This document shows, piece after piece, positions 1 to 36,858 of a stretch of DNA of 64,000 nucleotides (its first letter is position 1; every line of letters begins with the position of its first letter). The notes below the pieces were generated by a model. The model saw only the letters and a program-made list of their open reading frames with translations. It did no database searches and was not told the origin of the DNA. The stretch spans positions 3,723-67,722 of the forward strand of contig CAIRDP010000023.1 in the NCBI GenBank assembly GCA_903877385.1. The letters are read 5' to 3'. A program made the translations under genes and the position numbers. The DNA is from an uncultured Bacteroidales bacterium (lineage in GTDB: Bacteria > Bacteroidota > Bacteroidia > Bacteroidales > FEN-979).

Positions 1-375
1 CCTGTAAAAACCAGACGCAAAAAAGACAATTATGTGAGCGTACCCCTGAACCCATTATCACGGTCTATACTTCAAAAGTATGATTACGATATGTCAAAGT
101 TGATGATTTCAAATCAAAAATACAATGATGGGTTGCGTGATATGTTCACTGTCTTGATTGAAAAATATCCTGAAATATTCAAGCAAACCTACACATCACA
201 TAATGGTAGGGATACCTTTATCACTGATAGCCTTGCATCGAAGGTCGATGTTCCAACGTTGCTGAAAATGGTTGGACAAGAGTCCTATGAAGTGATGAAA
301 AGATACAATAAAGTATCCAAAGAACTCCGAATCCAAAATATGGAACTTGTCAAAGAATTCCAGGTATCAATTTAG
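1..375 (+). CDS. Tyrosine recombinase (phage-type integrase), C-terminal portion; 5' end lies outside the window
   Basis: Frame of ORF 34..375 stays open back to nt 1. Catalytic-domain pattern H-x-x-R (SHNGRDTFITD), LLKMVGQES in place of the usual LLGH box, terminal Tyr in MKRYNK. Confidence 0.6.
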   Translation, partial: PVKTRRKKDNYVSVPLNPLSRSILQKYDYDMSKLMISNQKYNDGLRDMFTVLIEKYPEIFKQTYTSHNGRDTFITDSLASKVDVPTLLKMVGQESYEVMKRYNKVSKELRIQNMELVKEFQVSI

Positions 376-8792: not shown

Positions 8793-10049
8793 TTAATTCT
8801 CTGTAGTTGGCTCTTCCAACTGTTTCATCTGCTGATTCAACCCATCTGATGCAATACCTTCCACACGACCCCAGAAGGACAGTATTGATTGCTTTGCCTG
8901 AAAAATTTGGCTTTCTCTTTCTGAAAAACGTTTAATGGCTGAATCTCTGTCCTGTTGTAAGCTTCTGTCCATTTTCTTGAATGCGTCCAAGATGCCCAGG
9001 ATGTGATTCTTGAAGTCATTGGACAGCAGATAGTCATATAGCATCGACATCTTATCCCCCTTGTTCTGCTGACTCTCCAAGGCGGTAGATTGTTTTACCA
9101 AGCCATCACGCAAAAGCATTGTCAGCAATGGAATATCATCAAAGGGGCATACCCACACCCCATCCCTGAAATGGGTTTCTCCATTATCCTTTGGCATTGC
9201 ACGGGTGACAAGCACACATACATCAGCCTTCACGGTTCTGGCATCAGCCTTCAATTTGGATACCCAACCCTCGCTGAATGCCTGGGTCTGCTTCCGCTCA
9301 TATAAAATCACACCCGACTGGGCACCCACATTGTTTTTGACGACGTGGTATACATCCGCCCCACGTATGCCTGATGGCACGTCCTGGATATCGTCGATTG
9401 GGTAAGTTTTGCGTAGGAAATCCCTGAGCTCGATCTCCGTGACCTCTCCAGTCAGCTTGTTTGACCCCTGTTCCAGTTTCTGCTGGGTTTCTTCCAGCCG
9501 CTTCTGCAAATCTTCGATGAGCTTATCACGTTTCTGGACATCCAGCTTTGATTTCTCCGATTCCGACGTCTTGATCTTCTCCCGTTCCTGGGCAAGCAAT
9601 TCCCCAAACTTCTTTTCGGATTCGGCTTCAATGGATTCTTTCAGTTCATCCTTTTCACGCTTCAACTGGGAAACGAGAGCCTTGGTCTTATTGAGTTCTT
9701 TGAGTTGCTCCGACTTGGTATTGAGCTCCGTTTCCAACGCCAGCAATTGACTTTCTTTCTCAGCATCTATCTGTTTGCGCAGGTTCTTTTCCAATGCGCC
9801 TTTCTCCACGGACAGCTTTTGCTTCACGGCAGCATCCACCTGAACCTGCAAATCTTCCTGCGCCTTTTCGAGCTTCTCCCTCTCCTGTTGAAGCTGCTGG
9901 GTTTTTTCTTTGAACTCCTTGTCCTTTTTGGCAATCTGGGCTTCAAAGTCTTTCTTTAGCTGCTCCTGAACCTGGTGGAACAGGACATCGCTGACGTTGA
10001 TTGGTTCACCACAATTGGGGCATTTGATGGTATTCGATTCTGGTTCCAT
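8793..10049 (-). CDS. DUF2130-family protein (zinc ribbon, long coiled coil, C-terminal nuclease-like domain)
   Basis: IKCPNCGEPINV..., ~170 aa E/K/Q-rich coiled coil, then RGADVYHVVKN...GVILYERKQTQAFSEGWVSKLKADARTVKADVCVLVTRAMPKD, typical of DUF2130. Confidence 0.7.
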   Translation of the reverse strand: MEPESNTIKCPNCGEPINVSDVLFHQVQEQLKKDFEAQIAKKDKEFKEKTQQLQQEREKLEKAQEDLQVQVDAAVKQKLSVEKGALEKNLRKQIDAEKESQLLALETELNTKSEQLKELNKTKALVSQLKREKDELKESIEAESEKKFGELLAQEREKIKTSESEKSKLDVQKRDKLIEDLQKRLEETQQKLEQGSNKLTGEVTEIELRDFLRKTYPIDDIQDVPSGIRGADVYHVVKNNVGAQSGVILYERKQTQAFSEGWVSKLKADARTVKADVCVLVTRAMPKDNGETHFRDGVWVCPFDDIPLLTMLLRDGLVKQSTALESQQNKGDKMSMLYDYLLSNDFKNHILGILDAFKKMDRSLQQDRDSAIKRFSERESQIFQAKQSILSFWGRVEGIASDGLNQQMKQLEEPTTEN

Positions 10050-11365: not shown

Positions 11366-11589
11366 ATTGTGATCGTTTCAGATCATAAAAAAACACCAAT
11401 GAATTTAAGATTGGCGTTTTCTTTTAAGTCCTGATCTTCAAGCACAAAGATAGGCAAAATTTATGACATAGCCAAATGTTTTTTCATTGTAATTGGCGGT
11501 TTATTGTAATATTTTCAGGTGGATTTGTTGTTTTGTAAGTATTTCATAGAAAATAGTGAAAGGTAGAGTTTGAAAATCGGAAGATGAAA

Positions 11590-14500
11590 TTAGTTTGTTA
11601 CTTCTAAAATTTCAACATAGTTGTCTAAATTACCGACCTTAACAATATCCCCAATTGAGTGCCCAAGAATTGAGGTTGCAAGGGGAGATTTGATATTGAT
11701 CTTCTGCACCCCTTCAGATGTTCCCAATTTGTTATTGGTTGTTTCAACTAGTTGAACAATAATGTCCTTGCCATTATTCACATATTTAACTTTGACCCTA
11801 CTTTTAAGTTTGATTTCGTCACTGAAAATTTTAAGCTGTTGAGGTTTTTGTTCTTCTAAGCGTTGAATAGATTCAACTTCTTTTTCGGTGTCGATGAAGG
11901 ATAATTGAGAAATATATGTATCAATATTCACAAAGTCATCCGTAAAAGCCGTGGAAATAGTAGAACTGTGAGTAGGACATTTTTTTTGTGTTGTTGTAAC
12001 GGTATCTTTAATAAAATGTACCAACCTCGCTGTTTCTCTTCCAGGGTTTTTCCACCAATTTGTACTCCAAATCCTATGAAATACAAATCCGTGACTTTCT
12101 AATATTTTTTGTCTAAAACTGTCATATAGGTATGCTTCCCTTTTTTCGTGATATTTTGCCCCATCACACTCAATAGCAATTTTTGGAACACCTTCTATTT
12201 TGGGGTCATAGACGATGTCGATTCTGAAACCAGCAAATTTGAATTGTGGTATTAATTTTTCTTCACCAAAGACATCCACCAACCTTTCGTAAACTTCTTC
12301 TTCAAATGGAGATTCCAAATCTCGATTTAGAACATTGATGCTTGTGTTTTTAGGGGCGTTCTCACTTAATGCAGTCAGAACAGAAAGTCTTAAATCACTA
12401 TTGCTTTCGCTGACGGCTTTGCTATATGCCAAATATGCATAAAAGATGGCTCTTTTATTATTCGACCCTTCAATCGTTAAGTATTCTTTATAATTAAGAA
12501 ATATTTGGGGTGGTATTGAAGAACATACATAGACTTTATATTTTGCCCTGGTAATAATAACATTTAGAAGTTTATATCCCTTGGAATGATTAAGCGGGCC
12601 GAATCTATGCGCAAATTTCCCGTCTTTCCCAACGCCATATGTAGTCGAAAGAATAACAACGTCTTTTTCATCACCCTGTATGTTTTCAAGATTTTTAATA
12701 AACGATTTATTACTTTTTGGGTCATCAAGCCCTAATTCTTGAATCTTCTCATTAAAGTGTGTGTATTTTTCAAACTTTTTTCTCTGACTAATTTTTGATA
12801 TTATTAGATTTCGCTGTGCTATATTGAAAGTGGCAACTCCAATTGTCGGGTATTCTCCATTTGGTAATCTATTAATGTTATTTTCTATTATTGATAATAC
12901 CATTTCGGCTTCTGCCTCATTTGTATGGTCAGAAAATGTTCCATTTACCTGAATATATTTAATAGGTACATATTCAAAGATGTTCGGTAATGGCATTAAT
13001 CTCTGATTATAAAAGGCATAGTTGGAAAAATCAATAAGATATGGATGTCTCGAACGATAGTGAAATTCCAACAATTTCTTTTCAAAATTTAATTCTGTTC
13101 CAAAGTCAAGCAAAGATTCACACGATAATAGGTTGTTGTCTTTGTCAACTATTATTTCTTCTTCTTCAATATCGTCTTCATCTTCGACATAGCCATCAAA
13201 GACTTTAGAAAAATAATTTGAAGGTGGCATTTGATGTTCGTCTCCTGCAATTATTATTTGTTTCCCTTTCAATATTGAGGGTAAATTATCTTCTAATCTA
13301 AGCTGACTTGCTTCATCAAACATTACAATGTCAAAGTACCCATTCATATGTTTAAATAAATTACAGCAAACATCGGGTGAGGTTAGAATAATTGGGAAAA
13401 AAGTTGTAAAAAGGTTTGTATCGAACTGCACAATTTGTCTTAATGATAATCTTTTGAACCTATTACTACTTCTTTTATTATAAATGTTTTCAACTGAAAT
13501 GTTATCATTACGGTGTTCAAACTCTCTGGTAGTGTCAATTTGTTTAGAAAACCAAAACTCTCGAATGTACCTTAACTGTTCTTTCCCAATGGCACTTAAA
13601 GATTTTTCAAGCTCTGAATGCTCATCGCTATTTGTAGGTAAATCAATGTTGGCGGAGTTCATTAATAACAAGTTCAAATAATGTATTAAAAAAACTTTTC
13701 TCCAATTAACCTTACTCTTCAATTCATTAATAACTTTTTTATTTTTCTCTGTTAACACATTAAAGAATTGATACCACTTGAACTCAATAGTAAAAAAGTC
13801 ATTCTCCCCGCTAAAATATTCTTTCTCCCGCGCTATTATTCTTTCTAAATCAATAAAAAGTGAATTAAAATTTGAATCGTGGATTATTTCTAAAGTGCAG
13901 CTATCAGAATTAAATCTGAGTATTAACCCCTTAGATTTTTCTTGAAGGTCAGCTAAATTAGGTAAGATCAAATCGGTTAACGGAATTTGTAGCCAATTGA
14001 TTTTTTCAAATTCATTTTGAATCTTAGAATTAAAATTCTTTTGAATCAAGTCGATATCTAATTCAATTCTTGAAAGTGATGATAACTTTTGGTTTAATGT
14101 CCCTTCGGGATTATATTCGTTGTCAATATCTTTGCTGCAATGAATATAATCAACAAGCTCTCGGAATTGTCTATGTAAGTCAACAACAAATTTTGAAACT
14201 TCGTCTTTAATTCTATTAAGCAAAGATAAATATTCAACTGAACTATTATCTTTAGTTAAAGCAATTTCTATGTTTTTAAATGAATCTTCAACATTTTCCT
14301 TTTCACGACTTGAACGAAGGTTAAAGTTTTCAAATTCTCTATCTGTTCTTTCTGCGAAACTGGATTTTACTTCAATTATTATCGAAGTAAACGACTCTAA
14401 GGTCTTCTGTTTAGTTTCAATTTGACCTGAAAAATCAAGAGTATCAAAATCTCTTGATTTAGAAATAGCAGTTTCAAGCTGGGTAAATAATACCTTTAGT

Positions 14501-16452
14501 TTTAAATTGTCAGAAATAATTGCTCTTTTTGATTGTGAGAATAATGACAATACTTTAAATGAAAATCTCCTAATTTTATCTTCGTTAAAAAAGTCGGGAT
14601 TCTGATAATTATTAGCAAATATTTCTTCAATTTTACCTATGAGATTGTGAAAATGTATAATTTGGGCAGATAACTCTGACTCTCGAAAAATACAATACTC
14701 ATATCTTAGACGCTGGATTAATTTTTCCAACTGTAGGAAATTATTTGTTATTGTTGTTGTTAATTGATGTATTCCAGCAATCTGCGCTTTAAGTTCCTCA
14801 ATTCTTAGGTTTATATATTCATTTCTAATTATTTCAAACAGAAGTTTAATAGATCCGATTTCTTTTCTATAATAATCAAAATCGTCAATAATTTTTTGCT
14901 CAATTAAATATGGGTTATCCCCTGAGAATTTCTTTGGGTTTATGAAAGATGTAGCTTCAATCTTCTTATATTCGTTATAAAGTTGCTGCCCTTTTTGCAC
15001 CAAACCCAGCGTAGTATTGAGTTCTTCCGATGTAAAATTAAAATGGGTTTTATCAATTTGCAGCGCATAGTCTTCATCCGCTCCTTTAAGTTCAAGTAAA
15101 AGTGTTCCAACAATGTCAGTCCAAGATTTATTACTTAGAAGTTTTTCATCAAGTTTTTTATGCTTTTTGTTTATAGAGATTATCAGATCTTTTGTCTTAC
15201 AGATCAAATTATCTAAAGATTCTTTTGAGAATGTGTAACGATAATGTTTATAGTCAGAGTTATCAACCCTATTTCGAACAGAATCAACAACCGTTCTTCT
15301 GTCTTTTACAATATCACGAATTAATACACAGTGAAAGTTGAGCCCTCTTTCAATTAGAGCGTTATGCAATACTTCTAATGCAGTTCTTTTTTCACAAACC
15401 ACAATTGTTTTTTTATTATTCTCTAAAGCATTTACAAGGATTGCTGTCAATGTTTGACTTTTACCTGTACCTGGGGGGCCTTGAATTAAGATATTCCGTT
15501 CGGATTCTAAAGAATGTAAAATGCTTTGCTGTGAAGGGTCTGTCTCAACAGAAGAAATCGGTTGAAAAGAATGTCCTTCGATACTGTCGAGGTTTATTGA
15601 TAGTCCTTCAAGCTCTAACAAATTTCCGTAATCATTAATGATATTTTGCTTCTGAACTTCAAAAATTGAAAACAATCCACCAAAATCAATAAAGGCGTTT
15701 GTTGAATTTAACGGTAATTTTTCATAATGAACTTTGTCACAAATTGGTGAAATATTTTCAAGTTTTTTCTTAAAAATATCCTTTATATCGCTTGGAACGG
15801 TTGTATTAATAGCTCTTAGAAGATTGTCGCATATTTCAATGAGTTCGTCTTTACTTATCAACCCATCGTCAAGCATTTCACTGGGTATTTGCTCAATCTC
15901 TATATTTGAATCATTTTGTAAATGATTAATCAACACTTCATTAAGATATATCGGGTCATCTTCGGTTCTGTTAATTTCCCACGTATTAAACTCTTTTGTT
16001 CTTTTGATTCTAAGAGCCCAGATTAAAACTGGTGCAACAGTCAATTTGTTATCAACTTGGTCTCGTCTAACCAGAATTGGGAAACCAAATCCAAAAGTGT
16101 TTATGCCTTTTTCTGATTCTATTGCTTCTGTTTGGTTGATTAAATTTTCAAACGCCTTTGTGATTCTAACTAATTGGTTTTGGTCTTCTTCAAATAGTGA
16201 GTTTAAATCGGGAACGTTTTCTTTCCAGCTAATTCTAAATTTTAATGGTTGTTCTGACAGGAGGGAATTAATGAAATTTGTCGGTAGGTTTTTATCTATA
16301 TATGATAGCCTGTTGAGGTCGAACTTGTAGCGAGATTTTGATGGAATAGCATTAAGATGAACACCTCTACGGTTACCGACTTTTAATCTCAATTGTAATT
16401 CAGTTAACAATTTCTTTGTCAGTTCCATTGTGGTAAATTTTGGTTTAGACAA
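11590..16452 (-). CDS. 1620-aa SF1 (Upf1/DNA2-like, DUF4011-type) helicase fused to a PD-(D/E)xK (DUF559/Vsr-like) nuclease and a GreA/GreB C-terminal-like domain
   Basis: Helicase motifs: Walker A LIQGPPGTGKSQT, motif II VMFDEASQL, motif III IIAGDEHQMPP, motif VI LNVIITRAKYKVYV. Nuclease core: FRIDIVYD...KIAIECDGAKYH...HRIWSTNWWKNP. Extreme C-terminus KINIKSPLATSILGHSIGDIVKV...YVEILEV resembles the GreA C-terminal domain. Confidence 0.85.
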   Translation of the reverse strand: MSKPKFTTMELTKKLLTELQLRLKVGNRRGVHLNAIPSKSRYKFDLNRLSYIDKNLPTNFINSLLSEQPLKFRISWKENVPDLNSLFEEDQNQLVRITKAFENLINQTEAIESEKGINTFGFGFPILVRRDQVDNKLTVAPVLIWALRIKRTKEFNTWEINRTEDDPIYLNEVLINHLQNDSNIEIEQIPSEMLDDGLISKDELIEICDNLLRAINTTVPSDIKDIFKKKLENISPICDKVHYEKLPLNSTNAFIDFGGLFSIFEVQKQNIINDYGNLLELEGLSINLDSIEGHSFQPISSVETDPSQQSILHSLESERNILIQGPPGTGKSQTLTAILVNALENNKKTIVVCEKRTALEVLHNALIERGLNFHCVLIRDIVKDRRTVVDSVRNRVDNSDYKHYRYTFSKESLDNLICKTKDLIISINKKHKKLDEKLLSNKSWTDIVGTLLLELKGADEDYALQIDKTHFNFTSEELNTTLGLVQKGQQLYNEYKKIEATSFINPKKFSGDNPYLIEQKIIDDFDYYRKEIGSIKLLFEIIRNEYINLRIEELKAQIAGIHQLTTTITNNFLQLEKLIQRLRYEYCIFRESELSAQIIHFHNLIGKIEEIFANNYQNPDFFNEDKIRRFSFKVLSLFSQSKRAIISDNLKLKVLFTQLETAISKSRDFDTLDFSGQIETKQKTLESFTSIIIEVKSSFAERTDREFENFNLRSSREKENVEDSFKNIEIALTKDNSSVEYLSLLNRIKDEVSKFVVDLHRQFRELVDYIHCSKDIDNEYNPEGTLNQKLSSLSRIELDIDLIQKNFNSKIQNEFEKINWLQIPLTDLILPNLADLQEKSKGLILRFNSDSCTLEIIHDSNFNSLFIDLERIIAREKEYFSGENDFFTIEFKWYQFFNVLTEKNKKVINELKSKVNWRKVFLIHYLNLLLMNSANIDLPTNSDEHSELEKSLSAIGKEQLRYIREFWFSKQIDTTREFEHRNDNISVENIYNKRSSNRFKRLSLRQIVQFDTNLFTTFFPIILTSPDVCCNLFKHMNGYFDIVMFDEASQLRLEDNLPSILKGKQIIIAGDEHQMPPSNYFSKVFDGYVEDEDDIEEEEIIVDKDNNLLSCESLLDFGTELNFEKKLLEFHYRSRHPYLIDFSNYAFYNQRLMPLPNIFEYVPIKYIQVNGTFSDHTNEAEAEMVLSIIENNINRLPNGEYPTIGVATFNIAQRNLIISKISQRKKFEKYTHFNEKIQELGLDDPKSNKSFIKNLENIQGDEKDVVILSTTYGVGKDGKFAHRFGPLNHSKGYKLLNVIITRAKYKVYVCSSIPPQIFLNYKEYLTIEGSNNKRAIFYAYLAYSKAVSESNSDLRLSVLTALSENAPKNTSINVLNRDLESPFEEEVYERLVDVFGEEKLIPQFKFAGFRIDIVYDPKIEGVPKIAIECDGAKYHEKREAYLYDSFRQKILESHGFVFHRIWSTNWWKNPGRETARLVHFIKDTVTTTQKKCPTHSSTISTAFTDDFVNIDTYISQLSFIDTEKEVESIQRLEEQKPQQLKIFSDEIKLKSRVKVKYVNNGKDIIVQLVETTNNKLGTSEGVQKINIKSPLATSILGHSIGDIVKVGNLDNYVEILEVTN

Positions 16453-17290: not shown

Positions 17291-18600
17291 CACTAGCGTT
17301 GCGTTATAGTTACAACAATATCAATTGATTACAATTTTGTTCTTTGACATCTTGATTATCTTCATTTTGAAAGAGCTTTTTTATCGAAGTTCTATCTAAT
17401 GCTGAAAGGCTTACCAATTGCAGGATTTCATACAGCGATTGCTTTAGTTTAAGTTGTTTTTTTGCAATGACAACGATAACATAAGTCGATATTGCGATCC
17501 AAACCTGCGTTCTTACTGCGTTTTCACTTTGTCCCCAGAATGATTGAATCTTTAGGTGTTGTTTTATCCATTTGAAAAATAGTTCAATACCCCAGCGTTT
17601 CTTGTATAATGCTGCAATTGTGAGGGGCGCCAATTTGAAATTATTTGTAAGAAAAACAAGTGTGTTCCCAGTTTCCTCATCAAAATATCGAATCCTTCTT
17701 AATGGTTCGGGATACTTTGTTGATGTAATAGGGTCAGTGAGGACAATGGTTTGATCACAAATAACTCCTTTTGTTTTATCTGTTATTCTTCTTTCAAGCA
17801 CTCTGTATTTCATATTCTTTTTTGCTCTGACTACAAAGTTGGTTCTTCCTTTTGCAAATCGCCTCAATCTTACGAAATCGATGTATCCCTTATCCATTAC
17901 CAGGTAACTCCCTGCAGGTAGAGAAAAATAGTCCATTGTATTAACCTCGTGAACGGATCCATCGGTGATAAAGATATACTCAGGTATTGCAGTTTTTAGA
18001 TCAATAAGTGTATGGAGTTTAATTGCTGCCTTGGTAGAGCGGAATTTTGCCCACCAAAAAACATCCAAGCACAGATCAATGGTAGTGGCATCCAGAGCAT
18101 AAACTTTGCCTTTCAGTTTTAAATCTATCAGATTGTCGTCCTCACATAACACTCGTGCCTGATCAATGAGTTTAAGTGCAAAATCACGAAATATTCGCCA
18201 ATCTCTATTCTCATTGGCTCTTGCAATTGTAGATTTATCAAACGCTCTGCCAATTCCCAAATGATAAAGTTTATCCTTCTGGAGTTTTAAACAAAGGGCT
18301 GTGTCAGAAAGGCTTTCCCTGTGAGTAAGTTGGCCAAATGCCATACAGAGAAACTGCTTCCAGCAAGTTAGTCCCTTGTTATTGTAATCGCCATTGTATC
18401 GTTTAACACCATATTTGAAAACATCCCATGGCACAAATTCCATTAACTGAGCGAATACCATCTTTCCCTTGTTCATCCTGGGTTTTTTGAACAAAGAACG
18501 GTAAAACAAAATTCAAATCTCGGATCGCAAAAAAACTCAGCAAACAAAGATATATCAAGCCTTTCAAAGAACTTTTAACAATTTATACGCAACGCTAGTG
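17291..18600 (-). mobile_element. IS4-family insertion sequence (1310 bp) with terminal inverted repeats
   Basis: Left end CACTAGCGTTGCGTTATA (17291-) and right end TATACGCAACGCTAGTG (-18600) form a 14-bp perfect IR, extending imperfectly. They enclose a single transposase ORF. Confidence 0.8.
17310..18509 (-). CDS. IS4-family DDE transposase (DUF4372-type N-terminus)
   Basis: MVFAQLMEFVPWDVFKYGVKRYNGDYNNKGLTCWKQFLCMAFGQLTHRESL N-terminus and a DDE_Tnp_1-like body (ALDATTIDL...VMDKGYIDF...YKKRWGIELFFKWIKQ). Confidence 0.85.
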   Translation of the reverse strand: MFYRSLFKKPRMNKGKMVFAQLMEFVPWDVFKYGVKRYNGDYNNKGLTCWKQFLCMAFGQLTHRESLSDTALCLKLQKDKLYHLGIGRAFDKSTIARANENRDWRIFRDFALKLIDQARVLCEDDNLIDLKLKGKVYALDATTIDLCLDVFWWAKFRSTKAAIKLHTLIDLKTAIPEYIFITDGSVHEVNTMDYFSLPAGSYLVMDKGYIDFVRLRRFAKGRTNFVVRAKKNMKYRVLERRITDKTKGVICDQTIVLTDPITSTKYPEPLRRIRYFDEETGNTLVFLTNNFKLAPLTIAALYKKRWGIELFFKWIKQHLKIQSFWGQSENAVRTQVWIAISTYVIVVIAKKQLKLKQSLYEILQLVSLSALDRTSIKKLFQNEDNQDVKEQNCNQLILL

Positions 18601-23632: not shown

Positions 23633-24391
23633 CTACGACACAACATAATGAGTGTAACTCTGAGTCCAGGTCGGGATGCTTGGTTTGGGTAATTCTTTGT
23701 ATTCCCAGCCAGCGAGCTCGCAGCCCAGTTGCCTTGGATGAAACCCAGACCATTGCTTGAAGAAGAATGCAACACCCTTTCGCTTGCAGATATCCCGCAG
23801 TTCCAGTGCCCATTCCTTCTTCATTTCACGGAAGCCACTACCTGACTCACCACCACAAATGCACCAGTCTACGCCTGTGAGGTCTATGTCGCTTACTGGG
23901 CTTAACATCGGCTCCACCGAAATGAATCGTATTGCAGCAGGGATTCTTCTCAAATGGGCTATCCTGTGGTAATACTGGTTGCTTTCCACAGTACAGCCCA
24001 TCCAAATGTTCTGTGTCCAGTTAAGTTCCGATGAAAGCTCTTCCGCCCGTTCTATGCGCTTGGTCAGCACCTGAAACGTGAGGTGTGGGTTATCATTCAT
24101 AACCTTCCACACACGTTTGATGTAGGACAATGGAATTTGCCTGTGGAACAAGTCGCCCATACTGGGAACGAAAACCTTCTGCGGCTTTTTCCAGTGATAG
24201 GGTTTATCCAGTTCACCAGGATGCATCTGCACCCTGAATCCCTTCTCATACTTGGGATTTCCCATTACCAGTAGATGATTCGCTTCCCGTGCTGCGTAAC
24301 AGTGGTCACATCCTGGGGAGATCCTTTCTCCTGCACAGCCGCTTACGGGGTTCCAGGTGCGGTCTGTCCAGCTTATCTTTGAATTGCTCAT
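23633..24391 (-). CDS. DUF5131 / phage Gp37-Gp68 family protein (three-Cys motif)
   Basis: ISWTDRTWNPVSGCAGERISPGCDHCYA N-terminus, FVPSMGDLF, FQVLTKR, WMGCTVE, FISVEPML, WCICGGESG are all typical of PF07505. Confidence 0.8.
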   Translation of the reverse strand: MSNSKISWTDRTWNPVSGCAGERISPGCDHCYAAREANHLLVMGNPKYEKGFRVQMHPGELDKPYHWKKPQKVFVPSMGDLFHRQIPLSYIKRVWKVMNDNPHLTFQVLTKRIERAEELSSELNWTQNIWMGCTVESNQYYHRIAHLRRIPAAIRFISVEPMLSPVSDIDLTGVDWCICGGESGSGFREMKKEWALELRDICKRKGVAFFFKQWSGFHPRQLGCELAGWEYKELPKPSIPTWTQSYTHYVVS

Positions 24392-31845: not shown

Positions 31846-32796
31846 ATGGGAATTAACCCCGCTCCAAACACTTGCTTTTTAACTGGCTTTCCCGCAGTAA
31901 ATATTCCAAGCGCAGTTGATTGTATAGACTACTATGTAGATGTCTACGGCAAAAGATACCACTGCATATTCAGATGGGATTATCAAAATTCTCCCTTTAT
32001 TGATCAAAATCGTCACATCATTTTAGGTCTTTTCGCCAATAATCGGTTTCCAGTTCCCGAACCAAAACCATTTTACGATAAAGATGTGATCGAACGAATA
32101 ATATTGGAAGCTGATTACCCAAAGGATCCCAAAGCCAAGATGGATAATTTACTCATTAAATTGAGCGAGTTGCAGTCCTTCGAAGGTGAAGTGATCGATC
32201 TTTCAAAGATAGGGTCTGTGGACTTCTTTATTACGAAACTCTTTTTTAAGAACATTGAGGAATATGCATTCTATTTAAGGACTCTTAATGAGGAAGGATT
32301 GATTACTTATATTGATGAATCGACAAAGACATCCATAAGCTTTTCAACTATCCGTTTAACATTTTCTGGGTTGCGATATTTAATTGAAATTCAGAACATA
32401 GGAGCAAATTCGAATTATTGCTTTATTGCGATGTCTTTTTCAGGTACCGAAACTGAAATTCGGAATACCATCAAGCAAGTTTGCCTTGATACTGGATTTG
32501 AGCCGATACTTGTGGATGAATTGCATCTTCCAAGCGATGAGACAATAAATGATGCGATTCTCAGGCATATCAAAATGTGCAAGTTCATCATTGCTGATTT
32601 TACGAAACAAAAACACGGTGTTTATTTTGAAGCAGGCTTTGGACTTGGTCGGGGGATTCCTGTTATTTATACCTGTTCAGAAGAAGATTTTAAAAATTCT
32701 CATTTTGACACTAATCATTATCCTCACATTGTCTATTCCAATCTGATTTCCCTGAGGGAACAATTAACAAATAAAATTCTTGCTTGGATAGTCTGA
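31846..32796 (+). CDS. Winged-helix + nucleoside 2-deoxyribosyltransferase-like / TIR-like domain protein (316 aa)
   Basis: Middle: YAFYLRTLNEEGLITYID...LTFSGLRYL (wHTH-like). C-terminus: CFIAMSFSG...KFIIADFTKQKHGVYFEAGFGLGRGIPVIY, the Rossmannoid NDT/TIR-like pattern. Confidence 0.55.
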   Translation: MGINPAPNTCFLTGFPAVNIPSAVDCIDYYVDVYGKRYHCIFRWDYQNSPFIDQNRHIILGLFANNRFPVPEPKPFYDKDVIERIILEADYPKDPKAKMDNLLIKLSELQSFEGEVIDLSKIGSVDFFITKLFFKNIEEYAFYLRTLNEEGLITYIDESTKTSISFSTIRLTFSGLRYLIEIQNIGANSNYCFIAMSFSGTETEIRNTIKQVCLDTGFEPILVDELHLPSDETINDAILRHIKMCKFIIADFTKQKHGVYFEAGFGLGRGIPVIYTCSEEDFKNSHFDTNHYPHIVYSNLISLREQLTNKILAWIV

Positions 32797-36781: not shown

Positions 36782-36858
36782 TGGTCGGGATGAGAAGACT
36801 CGAACTTCCGACCCCCACGTCCCGAACGTGGTGCGCTAGCCAACTGCGCTACATCCCG
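36782..36858 (-). tRNA. tRNA-Pro (anticodon CGG), CCA encoded
   Basis: Folded by hand into a 77-nt cloverleaf: acceptor CGGGATG/CATCCCG, D stem GCGC/GCGC, anticodon stem CCACG/CGTGG with loop TTCGGGA, T arm GGAAG-TTCGAGT-CTTCT, discriminator A + CCA. Confidence 0.9.

Follow-up and report, generated by a model that had tools for sequence, protein, structure and literature searches.

What does a protein do that joins a helicase, a nuclease and the C-terminal domain of a Gre transcription factor in one polypeptide, and where in the cell does it act? The gene that raises this question lies on the reverse strand at 11590..16428 of a 64,000-nucleotide stretch of DNA (the window) from contig CAIRDP010000023.1, assembly GCA_903877385.1, of an uncultured Bacteroidales bacterium. 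On balance we favour the reading that its product is a stand-alone, mobile anti-phage or anti-element helicase-nuclease whose C-terminal tail would dock on RNA polymerase. The GreA-C tail is, on the sequence comparisons presented below, an optional module that was acquired, lost or exchanged on many occasions but is under purifying selection all the same. This optional character is new in this analysis.

The GreA-C tail

The frame at 11590-16452(-) is a single intact open reading frame of 1620 codons, the longest version of which opens at TTG 16452. The initial annotation took all 1620 codons as the protein; the frame stands, but the length does not, as translation probably begins at ATG 16428, giving 1612 aa. 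We place it there because all close homologues open with MELTEKLL..., which matches the ATG eight codons into the frame. The stop codon is at 11590-11592, and residue numbers throughout follow the 1620-codon numbering of the longest frame. The frame is not a chance one, since the gene has a G+C content of ~30% against 46.2% genome-wide and a word-index search returned more than 3000 homologues. It is present in a single copy in its genome, and the identical 1612-aa protein occurs on at least 28 contigs of public assemblies, in the same island context every time. A Pfam search gave five domains along the protein, namely DUF4011 (marginal), AAA_11, AAA_12, MTES_1575 and the GreA_GreB C-terminal domain, and so bore out the architecture first read from the letters. 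Every motif quoted in that reading is present: GPPGTGKS (aa 325-332), DEASQ (aa 1046-1050), GDEHQMPP (aa 1070-1077), NVIITRAK (aa 1297-1304), RIDIVYD (aa 1410-1416), IECDGAKYH (aa 1427-1435) and SPLATSILGHSIGDIVKV (aa 1589-1606).

The GreA/GreB C-terminal-type domain occupies aa 1545-1620 (11593..11820, reverse strand) and carries a conserved SPLAxxxLG motif, in which Ser1589 and Pro1590 form the 'SP' helix cap. PF01272 matches aa 1545-1619 with 31.0 bits against a cut-off of 26.9, and AlphaFold2 models the tail with a predicted local distance difference test score (pLDDT) of 85-93. The top Foldseek matches of this model are Rnk (3bmb), Gfh1 (2etn, 3aoi and 2eul) and GreA (9a7t), with a probability of 1.00 and a root-mean-square deviation of 2.4-3.5 Å over ~78 columns; weaker matches are to GreA (1grj) and GreB (2p4v), and HelD (6wvk) is also matched weakly. 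The suspicion that the C-terminal 75 aa resemble GreA-C was thus well founded: as modelled, the last 76 aa have the GreA/Gfh1/Rnk C-terminal fold. With the C-terminal domain of the GreA encoded in the same genome the tail shares 34% identity. Across 31 aligned tails, with identity down to ~30%, the conserved core is sPla.a..gk..Gd.v, a motif that is also found in the genome's own GreA (SPIAKGLLGKILGEKVEI). The ratio of nonsynonymous to synonymous substitution rates (dN/dS) of the tail is ~0.1, and the tail therefore appears to be kept by selection.

Such proteins are annotated in databases as 'GreA/GreB family elongation factor'. The NCBIfam GreA models, however, reach only 19-26 bits against cut-offs of 139-167, and do so over the C-terminal domain only. 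The protein has no Pfam match to the Gre N-terminal coiled coil with its acidic tip (PF03449), and because this element is absent transcript cleavage cannot be stimulated. By spacing, we take Ser1589 and Ile1595 to be the counterparts of GreA S124 and L130, going by the GreA sequence and by the S628/L634 spacing of the defence protein Agp. Escherichia coli GreA contacts the beta-prime rim helices through its globular domain; RNA polymerase binding is reduced by S121P, and S124L (9% activity) and L130P (unstable) nearly abolish activity (PMC7527559). In Agp, S628L and L634P, both in the GreA/B-C domain, abolish defence (bioRxiv 10.1101/2024.11.07.622273). The chance that the tail binds RNA polymerase seems to us even or slightly better.

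How widespread the tail is was assessed from a full HMMER search with aa 980-1620, which returned 6224 clusters (50% identity) at E <= 1e-30; the best 150 cluster representatives of these form the census. A BLAST-detectable tail is present in 25 of the 150 and a divergent tail in 8 more (6 match PF01272 at E <= 4e-5, one matches it weakly and one was recognised by alignment), whilst ~105-108 stop within a few residues of the nuclease end. The tail-less end points are so consistent that random truncation is an unlikely cause. When the tail label is mapped onto a maximum-likelihood tree of the helicase-nuclease core, 19 changes are required, and well-supported branches force at least 9 of these. 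In close pairs (L050 vs L082, L058 vs L082, L032 vs L041 and L032 vs L073) the synonymous divergence (dS) of linker and tail is 0.5-1.6, exceeding 1 in several pairs, and is two- to six-fold the core dS of 0.2-0.5, indicating that the tail has been exchanged by recombination between alleles. One close relative within the window protein's own clade (P0196, 1253 aa) bears a KTSC-like domain (PF13619, E = 2e-5, narrowly below the cut-off) in the tail position, which suggests that different adaptor domains can be exchanged at the C-terminus. The tail had at first been called unusual; it is instead carried by a large Bacteroidota clade, as an add-on to a mostly tail-less family.

The same defence core could carry the tail for another purpose, as a regulatory, autoinhibitory or decoy domain rather than a polymerase anchor; for example, the tail might bind a phage protein aimed at Gre factors or the secondary channel and in this way release the nuclease. 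That most relatives do without a tail which has been gained, lost and once replaced by KTSC agrees with such a role, as does the missing Gre coiled coil, and the differing histories of tail and core in some pairs are as expected for an exchangeable sensor. However, the best-conserved motif of the tail is the one common to true Gre factors, and the same positions are needed for defence in Agp, whose authors read them as polymerase binding. We therefore regard a decoy or regulatory tail, the example included, as unlikely, and keep to polymerase docking in what follows.

Nuclease, motor and insert

Upstream of the tail, aa 1383-1490 (11983..12306, reverse strand, as are all segments of the protein) form a PD-(D/E)xK nuclease of the MTES_1575/Vsr/DUF559 type, as judged by Pfam, AlphaFold2 and Foldseek. 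MTES_1575 matches aa 1383-1481 with E = 2e-24 and DUF559 falls narrowly below its cut-off. In an AlphaFold2 model of aa 1330-1620 the pLDDT is 86-95 over the nuclease, and for this part Foldseek found the DUF559 protein NGO0050 (3hrl) and I-Bth0305I (3r3p), the latter with its Vsr-like catalytic domain. Asp1412, Glu1428, Asp1430, Lys1433 and His1435 are invariant in the homologue alignment. Between nuclease and tail lies a linker (aa 1491-1544; 11821..11982) rich in Asp, Glu, Gln and Ser, which is predicted to be disordered, with a pLDDT below 50 and a dN/dS of 0.1-0.3.

The helicase is encoded in two parts. The first part of RecA1 (14953..15552; AAA_11 at aa 306-499) contains the Walker A motif GPPGTGKS with the catalytic Lys331, and the rest of RecA1 together with RecA2 (aa 981-1330; 12463..13512; AAA_12 at aa 1123-1310) contains the near-invariant motifs DEASQ (Walker B), GDEHQMPP (motif III), HYRSRHP (aa 1131-1137) and NVIITRAK (motif VI). 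AAA_11 scores 56.6 bits and AAA_12 50.6 bits, with cut-offs of 27, and both lobes pass the test for an Upf1-like helicase of superfamily 1B (SF1B). Among proteins of solved structure, IGHMBP2, Upf1 and Sen1 are nearest in sequence, which points to the Upf1-like SF1B group. The helicase motifs are nearly invariant in alignments of 45 and 37 sequences, and dN/dS is 0.02-0.09 in the core and the N-terminus. Judged by these residues and rates, neither the ATPase motor nor the nuclease site has decayed, and both are under strong constraint.

The N-terminal region of DUF4011 type, assigned by Pfam and conservation (aa 9-300; 15553..16428), shows the highest conservation along the sequence, with 84-93% identity to homologues bar one stretch of 58%, and a dN/dS of 0.04-0.09. 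DUF4011 itself matches marginally at aa 95-178 (23.4 bits, cut-off 22.2), with only the C-terminal half of the model. AlphaFold2 gave a pLDDT of 64.7 for aa 9-371, and Foldseek returned no match in the PDB at E <= 0.001 for the fold of this region, the best being Upf1 (E = 0.025, probability 0.2).

Walker A and Walker B are ~710 residues apart, and the helicase is split between them by an insert of ~480 aa (aa 501-980; 13513..14952). The very long helical insertion of the initial annotation is therefore real as an insertion; its helical character is presumed only, from its low content of Pro (1.5%) and Gly (1.9%). Compared with the query in 119 homologues, the core of the insert (aa ~570-810) is 16-47% identical and the flanks ~75-93%. 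Since insert identity follows flank identity (r = 0.81) and the dN/dS of the insert is 0.15-0.35 against 0.02-0.09 in the flanks, this region appears to be fast-evolving but still constrained, and we rejected both a freely swapped cassette (from the correlation) and region-wide positive selection (from the dN/dS). The family falls into length classes of ~1323, 1355, 1460, 1610 and 1750-1786 aa, and a diagonal scan showed that the longest class has tandem duplications of ~103-aa and ~40-aa units inside the insert. Examples are P0068 aa 720-759 vs 823-862 and P0048 aa 782-821 vs 886-925 and aa 551-590 vs 591-630; the two copies in P0068 are almost identical, which makes this duplication a recent one.

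Kinship with known defence systems

The initial annotation compared the protein with anti-phage systems that combine a helicase with a nuclease, naming Nhi-like and helicase plus Vsr-endonuclease types, and proposed a search of the defence libraries. PADLOC gave PDC-S37 with 458 bits (E = 2e-137) and Hhe with 264 bits, whereas no Nhi model is among its seven matches at E <= 0.1; the Nhi analogy finds no support in this search, and the helicase plus Vsr analogy gains support from the profile matches to Hhe, ProA and PDC-S37. With the NCBIfam models the protein reaches 423.5 bits for ProA, whose cut-off is 1500, and 328.5 bits for Hhe, whose cut-off is 2000. The alignments are partial: Hhe (NF042953), matched over the second helicase lobe and the nuclease only, pairs aa 992-1547 with profile positions 1234-1736 of 1797, ProA (NF058533) pairs aa 983-1503 with positions 1247-1727 of 1903, and the best stretch in PDC-S37 (PDLC05009) is positions 843-1404 of 1550. 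For the window protein and six diverse members, PDC-S37 is covered over positions ~475-1405 of 1550 at most, with 457-489 bits. Membership in Hhe or ProA was accordingly rejected on score and coverage, and membership in PDC-S37 is improbable in view of the partial coverage; on this profile evidence, the clade of the window protein is a sister of Hhe, Prometheus/ProA and PDC-S37 and probably a member of none.

Hhe, reportedly described by Gao and colleagues in 2020 and represented by the models NF042953 (NCBIfam) and PDLC02194 (PADLOC), is likewise one polypeptide that combines a DUF4011-type N-terminus, an Upf1-like SF1 helicase interrupted by a long insert, and a nuclease of Vsr-like type, and is likewise found on mobile DNA. 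It differs in length, its profile having ~1800-1900 positions compared to 1612 aa here, and no Hhe match covers the GreA-C end. The window protein is ~32% identical to annotated hhe genes on Klebsiella plasmids. Hhe defends against lambda, T3, T7 and PhiV-1, and its E1731A nuclease mutant loses defence (bioRxiv 10.1101/2022.06.16.496414). Prometheus (van den Berg et al. 2024, Cell Host Microbe 32:1427) is, according to PMC13700489, a single-protein system that was validated experimentally in Pseudomonas aeruginosa. It consists of DUF4011, a helicase of the DNA2/Upf1 kind that bears a characteristic insert, a nuclease and a C-terminal DUF3320, and is described as related to R-loop-acting enzymes. 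The window protein shares with Prometheus/ProA the single-protein form, DUF4011, the helicase with its insert and the nuclease, but ends in a disordered linker and GreA-C where Prometheus ends in DUF3320, for which Pfam gave no match in the window protein at E <= 0.1. PDC-S37 is the best-scoring defence model, yet the match is partial and PDC-S37 is itself a candidate system, which we did not find by name in the literature.

GreA, GreB, Gfh1 and Rnk have the same C-terminal globular fold and an SPxAxxLxG motif, the window protein differing from them in lacking the N-terminal coiled coil. HelD is an SF1-type motor that contacts the secondary channel of RNA polymerase through a Gre-like element, in its case an N-terminal coiled coil; it lacks a nuclease and serves Gram-positive bacteria as a housekeeping recycling factor. 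The two proteins are thus alike in combining an SF1-type motor with a Gre-like element, and differ in the end at which it sits and in the presence of a nuclease. GreA/B-C domains are known from earlier work on other proteins of immunity (PMC8195603; bioRxiv 10.1101/2024.11.07.622273). In TPR-GreA/B-C-PIN (TGP) proteins it is proposed to engage RNA polymerase that has been hijacked by phage (Kaur et al. 2021, PMC8195603). TGP and Bab/Agp likewise place GreA/B-C beside a nuclease in a stand-alone defence protein, and in Agp the Ser and the hydrophobic residue six positions on are required. However, they combine TPR with a PIN RNase and hold the domain internally, compared to an SF1 helicase, a Vsr-like DNase and a C-terminal domain here, and the predicted target is RNA for TGP/Agp and probably DNA for the window protein, in which Pfam found no TPR or PIN domain. 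For a GreA/B-C tail on a DUF4011 helicase-nuclease we found no description in the literature. Overall, the domain composition and profile matches make it likely that the window protein is a defence-type enzyme of the DUF4011/Upf1-like-helicase/Vsr-like-nuclease superfamily.

Mobile setting and proposed function

The gene is accessory and was acquired on an integrative island. A conserved housekeeping helicase at a syntenic core position had been named as the alternative, and no homologue turned up at E <= 1e-20 in any of 40 relatives, which share the genus (10), the family (14) or the order (16), whilst two same-genus genomes (G002 and G005) show the empty site, with tRNA-Thr(CGT) and tRNA-Pro(CGG) 36 bp apart. 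Here the two tRNA genes, at C23:642-715 and C23:40504-40580 (C23 denotes contig coordinates; the window starts at C23 position 3,723), are 39.8 kb apart. The tRNA-Pro(CGG), the integration target, lies at 36782..36858 on the reverse strand of the window, and the 15 bp at its 3' end (36784-36798, GTCGGGATGAGAAGA) recur at C23:2595-2609, 1.1 kb before the window start. The helicase gene is inside the 37.9-kb element that these two copies delimit. Just inside the left repeat a tyrosine-recombinase-like gene, recognised by eye, extends over C23:2634-4094, so that its 3' end occupies 1..375 of the window on the forward strand. Directly upstream of the helicase gene is an IS4-family DDE transposase (17310..18509, reverse strand; Pfam DDE_Tnp_1 and DUF4372), which accounts for the adjoining insertion sequence noted from the start. 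The island cargo also includes a C5 methyltransferase and a DUF5131 protein.

The helicase gene stands alone, without a partner gene. We located 403 loci in 185,579 genomes (one genome per species), and among the best 80 of these the window neighbours, including three downstream paralogues, recur at none, a DUF2130 gene recurs at one and the commonest neighbour cluster reaches only 6; with no neighbour conserved, an operon or multi-gene system was rejected. Immediate neighbours elsewhere include integrases, helix-turn-helix regulators, LmuB, AriA, pAgo/SIR2, PtuA, HerA, AbiL, a restriction enzyme and several PDC candidates, and in a ranking of the Pfam families of immediate neighbours the integrases come near the top (3/125). 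The best 80 loci are almost all from Bacteroidota, plus two Ignavibacteria, and members of the tailed clade are frequent in Flavobacteriia, Chitinophagia and Sphingobacteriia, whose defence systems have been little studied. The best 120 of the more than 3000 homologues are 58-70% identical and nearly all have PF01272. Core dS is merely 0.2-0.3 between genes in bins labelled as different orders or phyla, for example a Flavobacteriaceae bin (L050) vs an Ignavibacteriae bin (L082) and Aureispira vs Sphingobacteriaceae, suggesting recent transfer between orders, with mis-binning possible in single cases. Plasmid records hold distant, tail-less relatives only, annotated hhe included.

How might such an enzyme work? 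We found no answer in the literature as to how systems of the Hhe/Prometheus type tell foreign from self. In the mechanism that we propose, the flexible acidic linker would allow GreA-C to reach the secondary channel of RNA polymerase and bind the beta-prime rim helices there, and this docking would hold the helicase-nuclease at transcription complexes. Where the polymerase is hijacked, stalled or forming R-loops on invading DNA, the motor could engage the nucleic acid (DNA or R-loop), and the Vsr-like domain would then nick or cut the invading DNA. The tail would be an add-on that gives a new direction to a core which can function alone, and the fast-evolving insert in RecA1 probably tunes sensing or is the target of a phage inhibitor. 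More tentatively, the tailed clade could be a transcription-coupled, DNA-targeting immune system in which transcription scans for foreign DNA, with GreA-C either carrying the core along on the host RNA polymerase or detecting a polymerase that is hijacked or backtracked; we consider this possible but doubtful.

Several observations weigh against this interpretation. The tail is absent from so many of the nearest census representatives that it must be unnecessary for core activity, and in GreA the N-terminal coiled coil, which the tail lacks, also helps binding (PMC7527559). The Hhe and ProA scores lie far below the equivalog cut-offs of NCBIfam, and the PDC-S37 match is confined to the second helicase lobe and the nuclease, leaving the last ~150 positions of the profile unmatched. 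The insert as a whole is under relaxed purifying selection and not positive selection. Housekeeping genes are among the neighbours in some other genomes, no plasmid homologue has a tail, and phage records give one distant relative.

A role in transcription-associated genome maintenance, by clearing R-loops or stalled polymerases at transcription-replication conflicts in the manner of Sen1/senataxin, HelD or Mfd and in the service of either island or host, would fit a helicase closest to Upf1, IGHMBP2 and Sen1 and a tail that points to RNA polymerase; Prometheus, too, is described as related to eukaryotic R-loop-acting enzymes in PMC13700489. A maintenance gene would however sit poorly with an acquired island missing from all 40 relatives, with a patchy distribution and recent transfer between orders, and with an endonuclease of the type that Hhe uses in defence, and the genome already has its own GreA. 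We judge maintenance to be improbable, a shade more so than a decoy tail. Least probable is a selfish weapon that excludes rival mobile elements or stabilises its own element rather than defending the host against lytic phage: despite the location in a 37.9-kb tRNA-integrating element with a C5 methyltransferase and DUF5131, relatives such as Hhe on conjugative plasmids and the integrases next door, the surrounding genes are completely different at the 80 other loci, so that the gene is not tied to one element type, and this reading in any case overlaps with defence and does not exclude it.

With an anti-phage or anti-element enzyme as the favoured reading, the recognisable polymerase-docking module provides a testable hypothesis for its site of action. 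Natural sisters with the tail, without it or with KTSC instead offer a comparison that could show what the tail contributes and, if the transcription-coupled version were true, nature would already have run an experiment on the re-aiming of defence motors each time a tail was gained, lost or swapped. The GreA/B-C 'polymerase-sensing' theme, so far seen on TPR-PIN proteins that target RNA, would thereby extend to a DNA helicase-nuclease.

Some further features of the island and of related loci are recorded here. The insertion between the tRNA genes is composite, consisting of a HipA-like toxin module (C23:~900-2500) and the 37.9-kb element; the HipA-like module is also present in two relatives, on other contigs and with 83-88% identity. 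A 316-aa island protein has a weak TIR-effector match (E = 9e-7), and the DUF5131 protein matches the PADLOC candidates PDC-M41B and PDC-M30B (E ~1e-97); the genes that give these defence-library matches are at 31846-32796(+) and 23633-24391(-) of the window. The single recurrence of DUF2130 is at L058:11850-13031, where the protein is 37% identical to that of window 8793-10049 and lies ~1 kb downstream of the helicase gene on the opposite strand; it is probably due to chance. L050 and L082, and likewise L026 and L029, hold nearly identical helicase genes in bins of different phyla, reflecting either very recent inter-phylum transfer or mis-binned contigs, and the label of the L029 bin, Asaia bogorensis, looks like contamination. 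Upstream of the helicase start there is only an imperfect TAATTTG. A perfect Bacteroidota-type -7 element, TAtcTTTG, is found at 11445-11452(-), ~80 nt upstream of the next gene (ATG 11365), and its position before that ATG fits a downstream unit of three paralogues and DUF2130 that is transcribed separately from the helicase.

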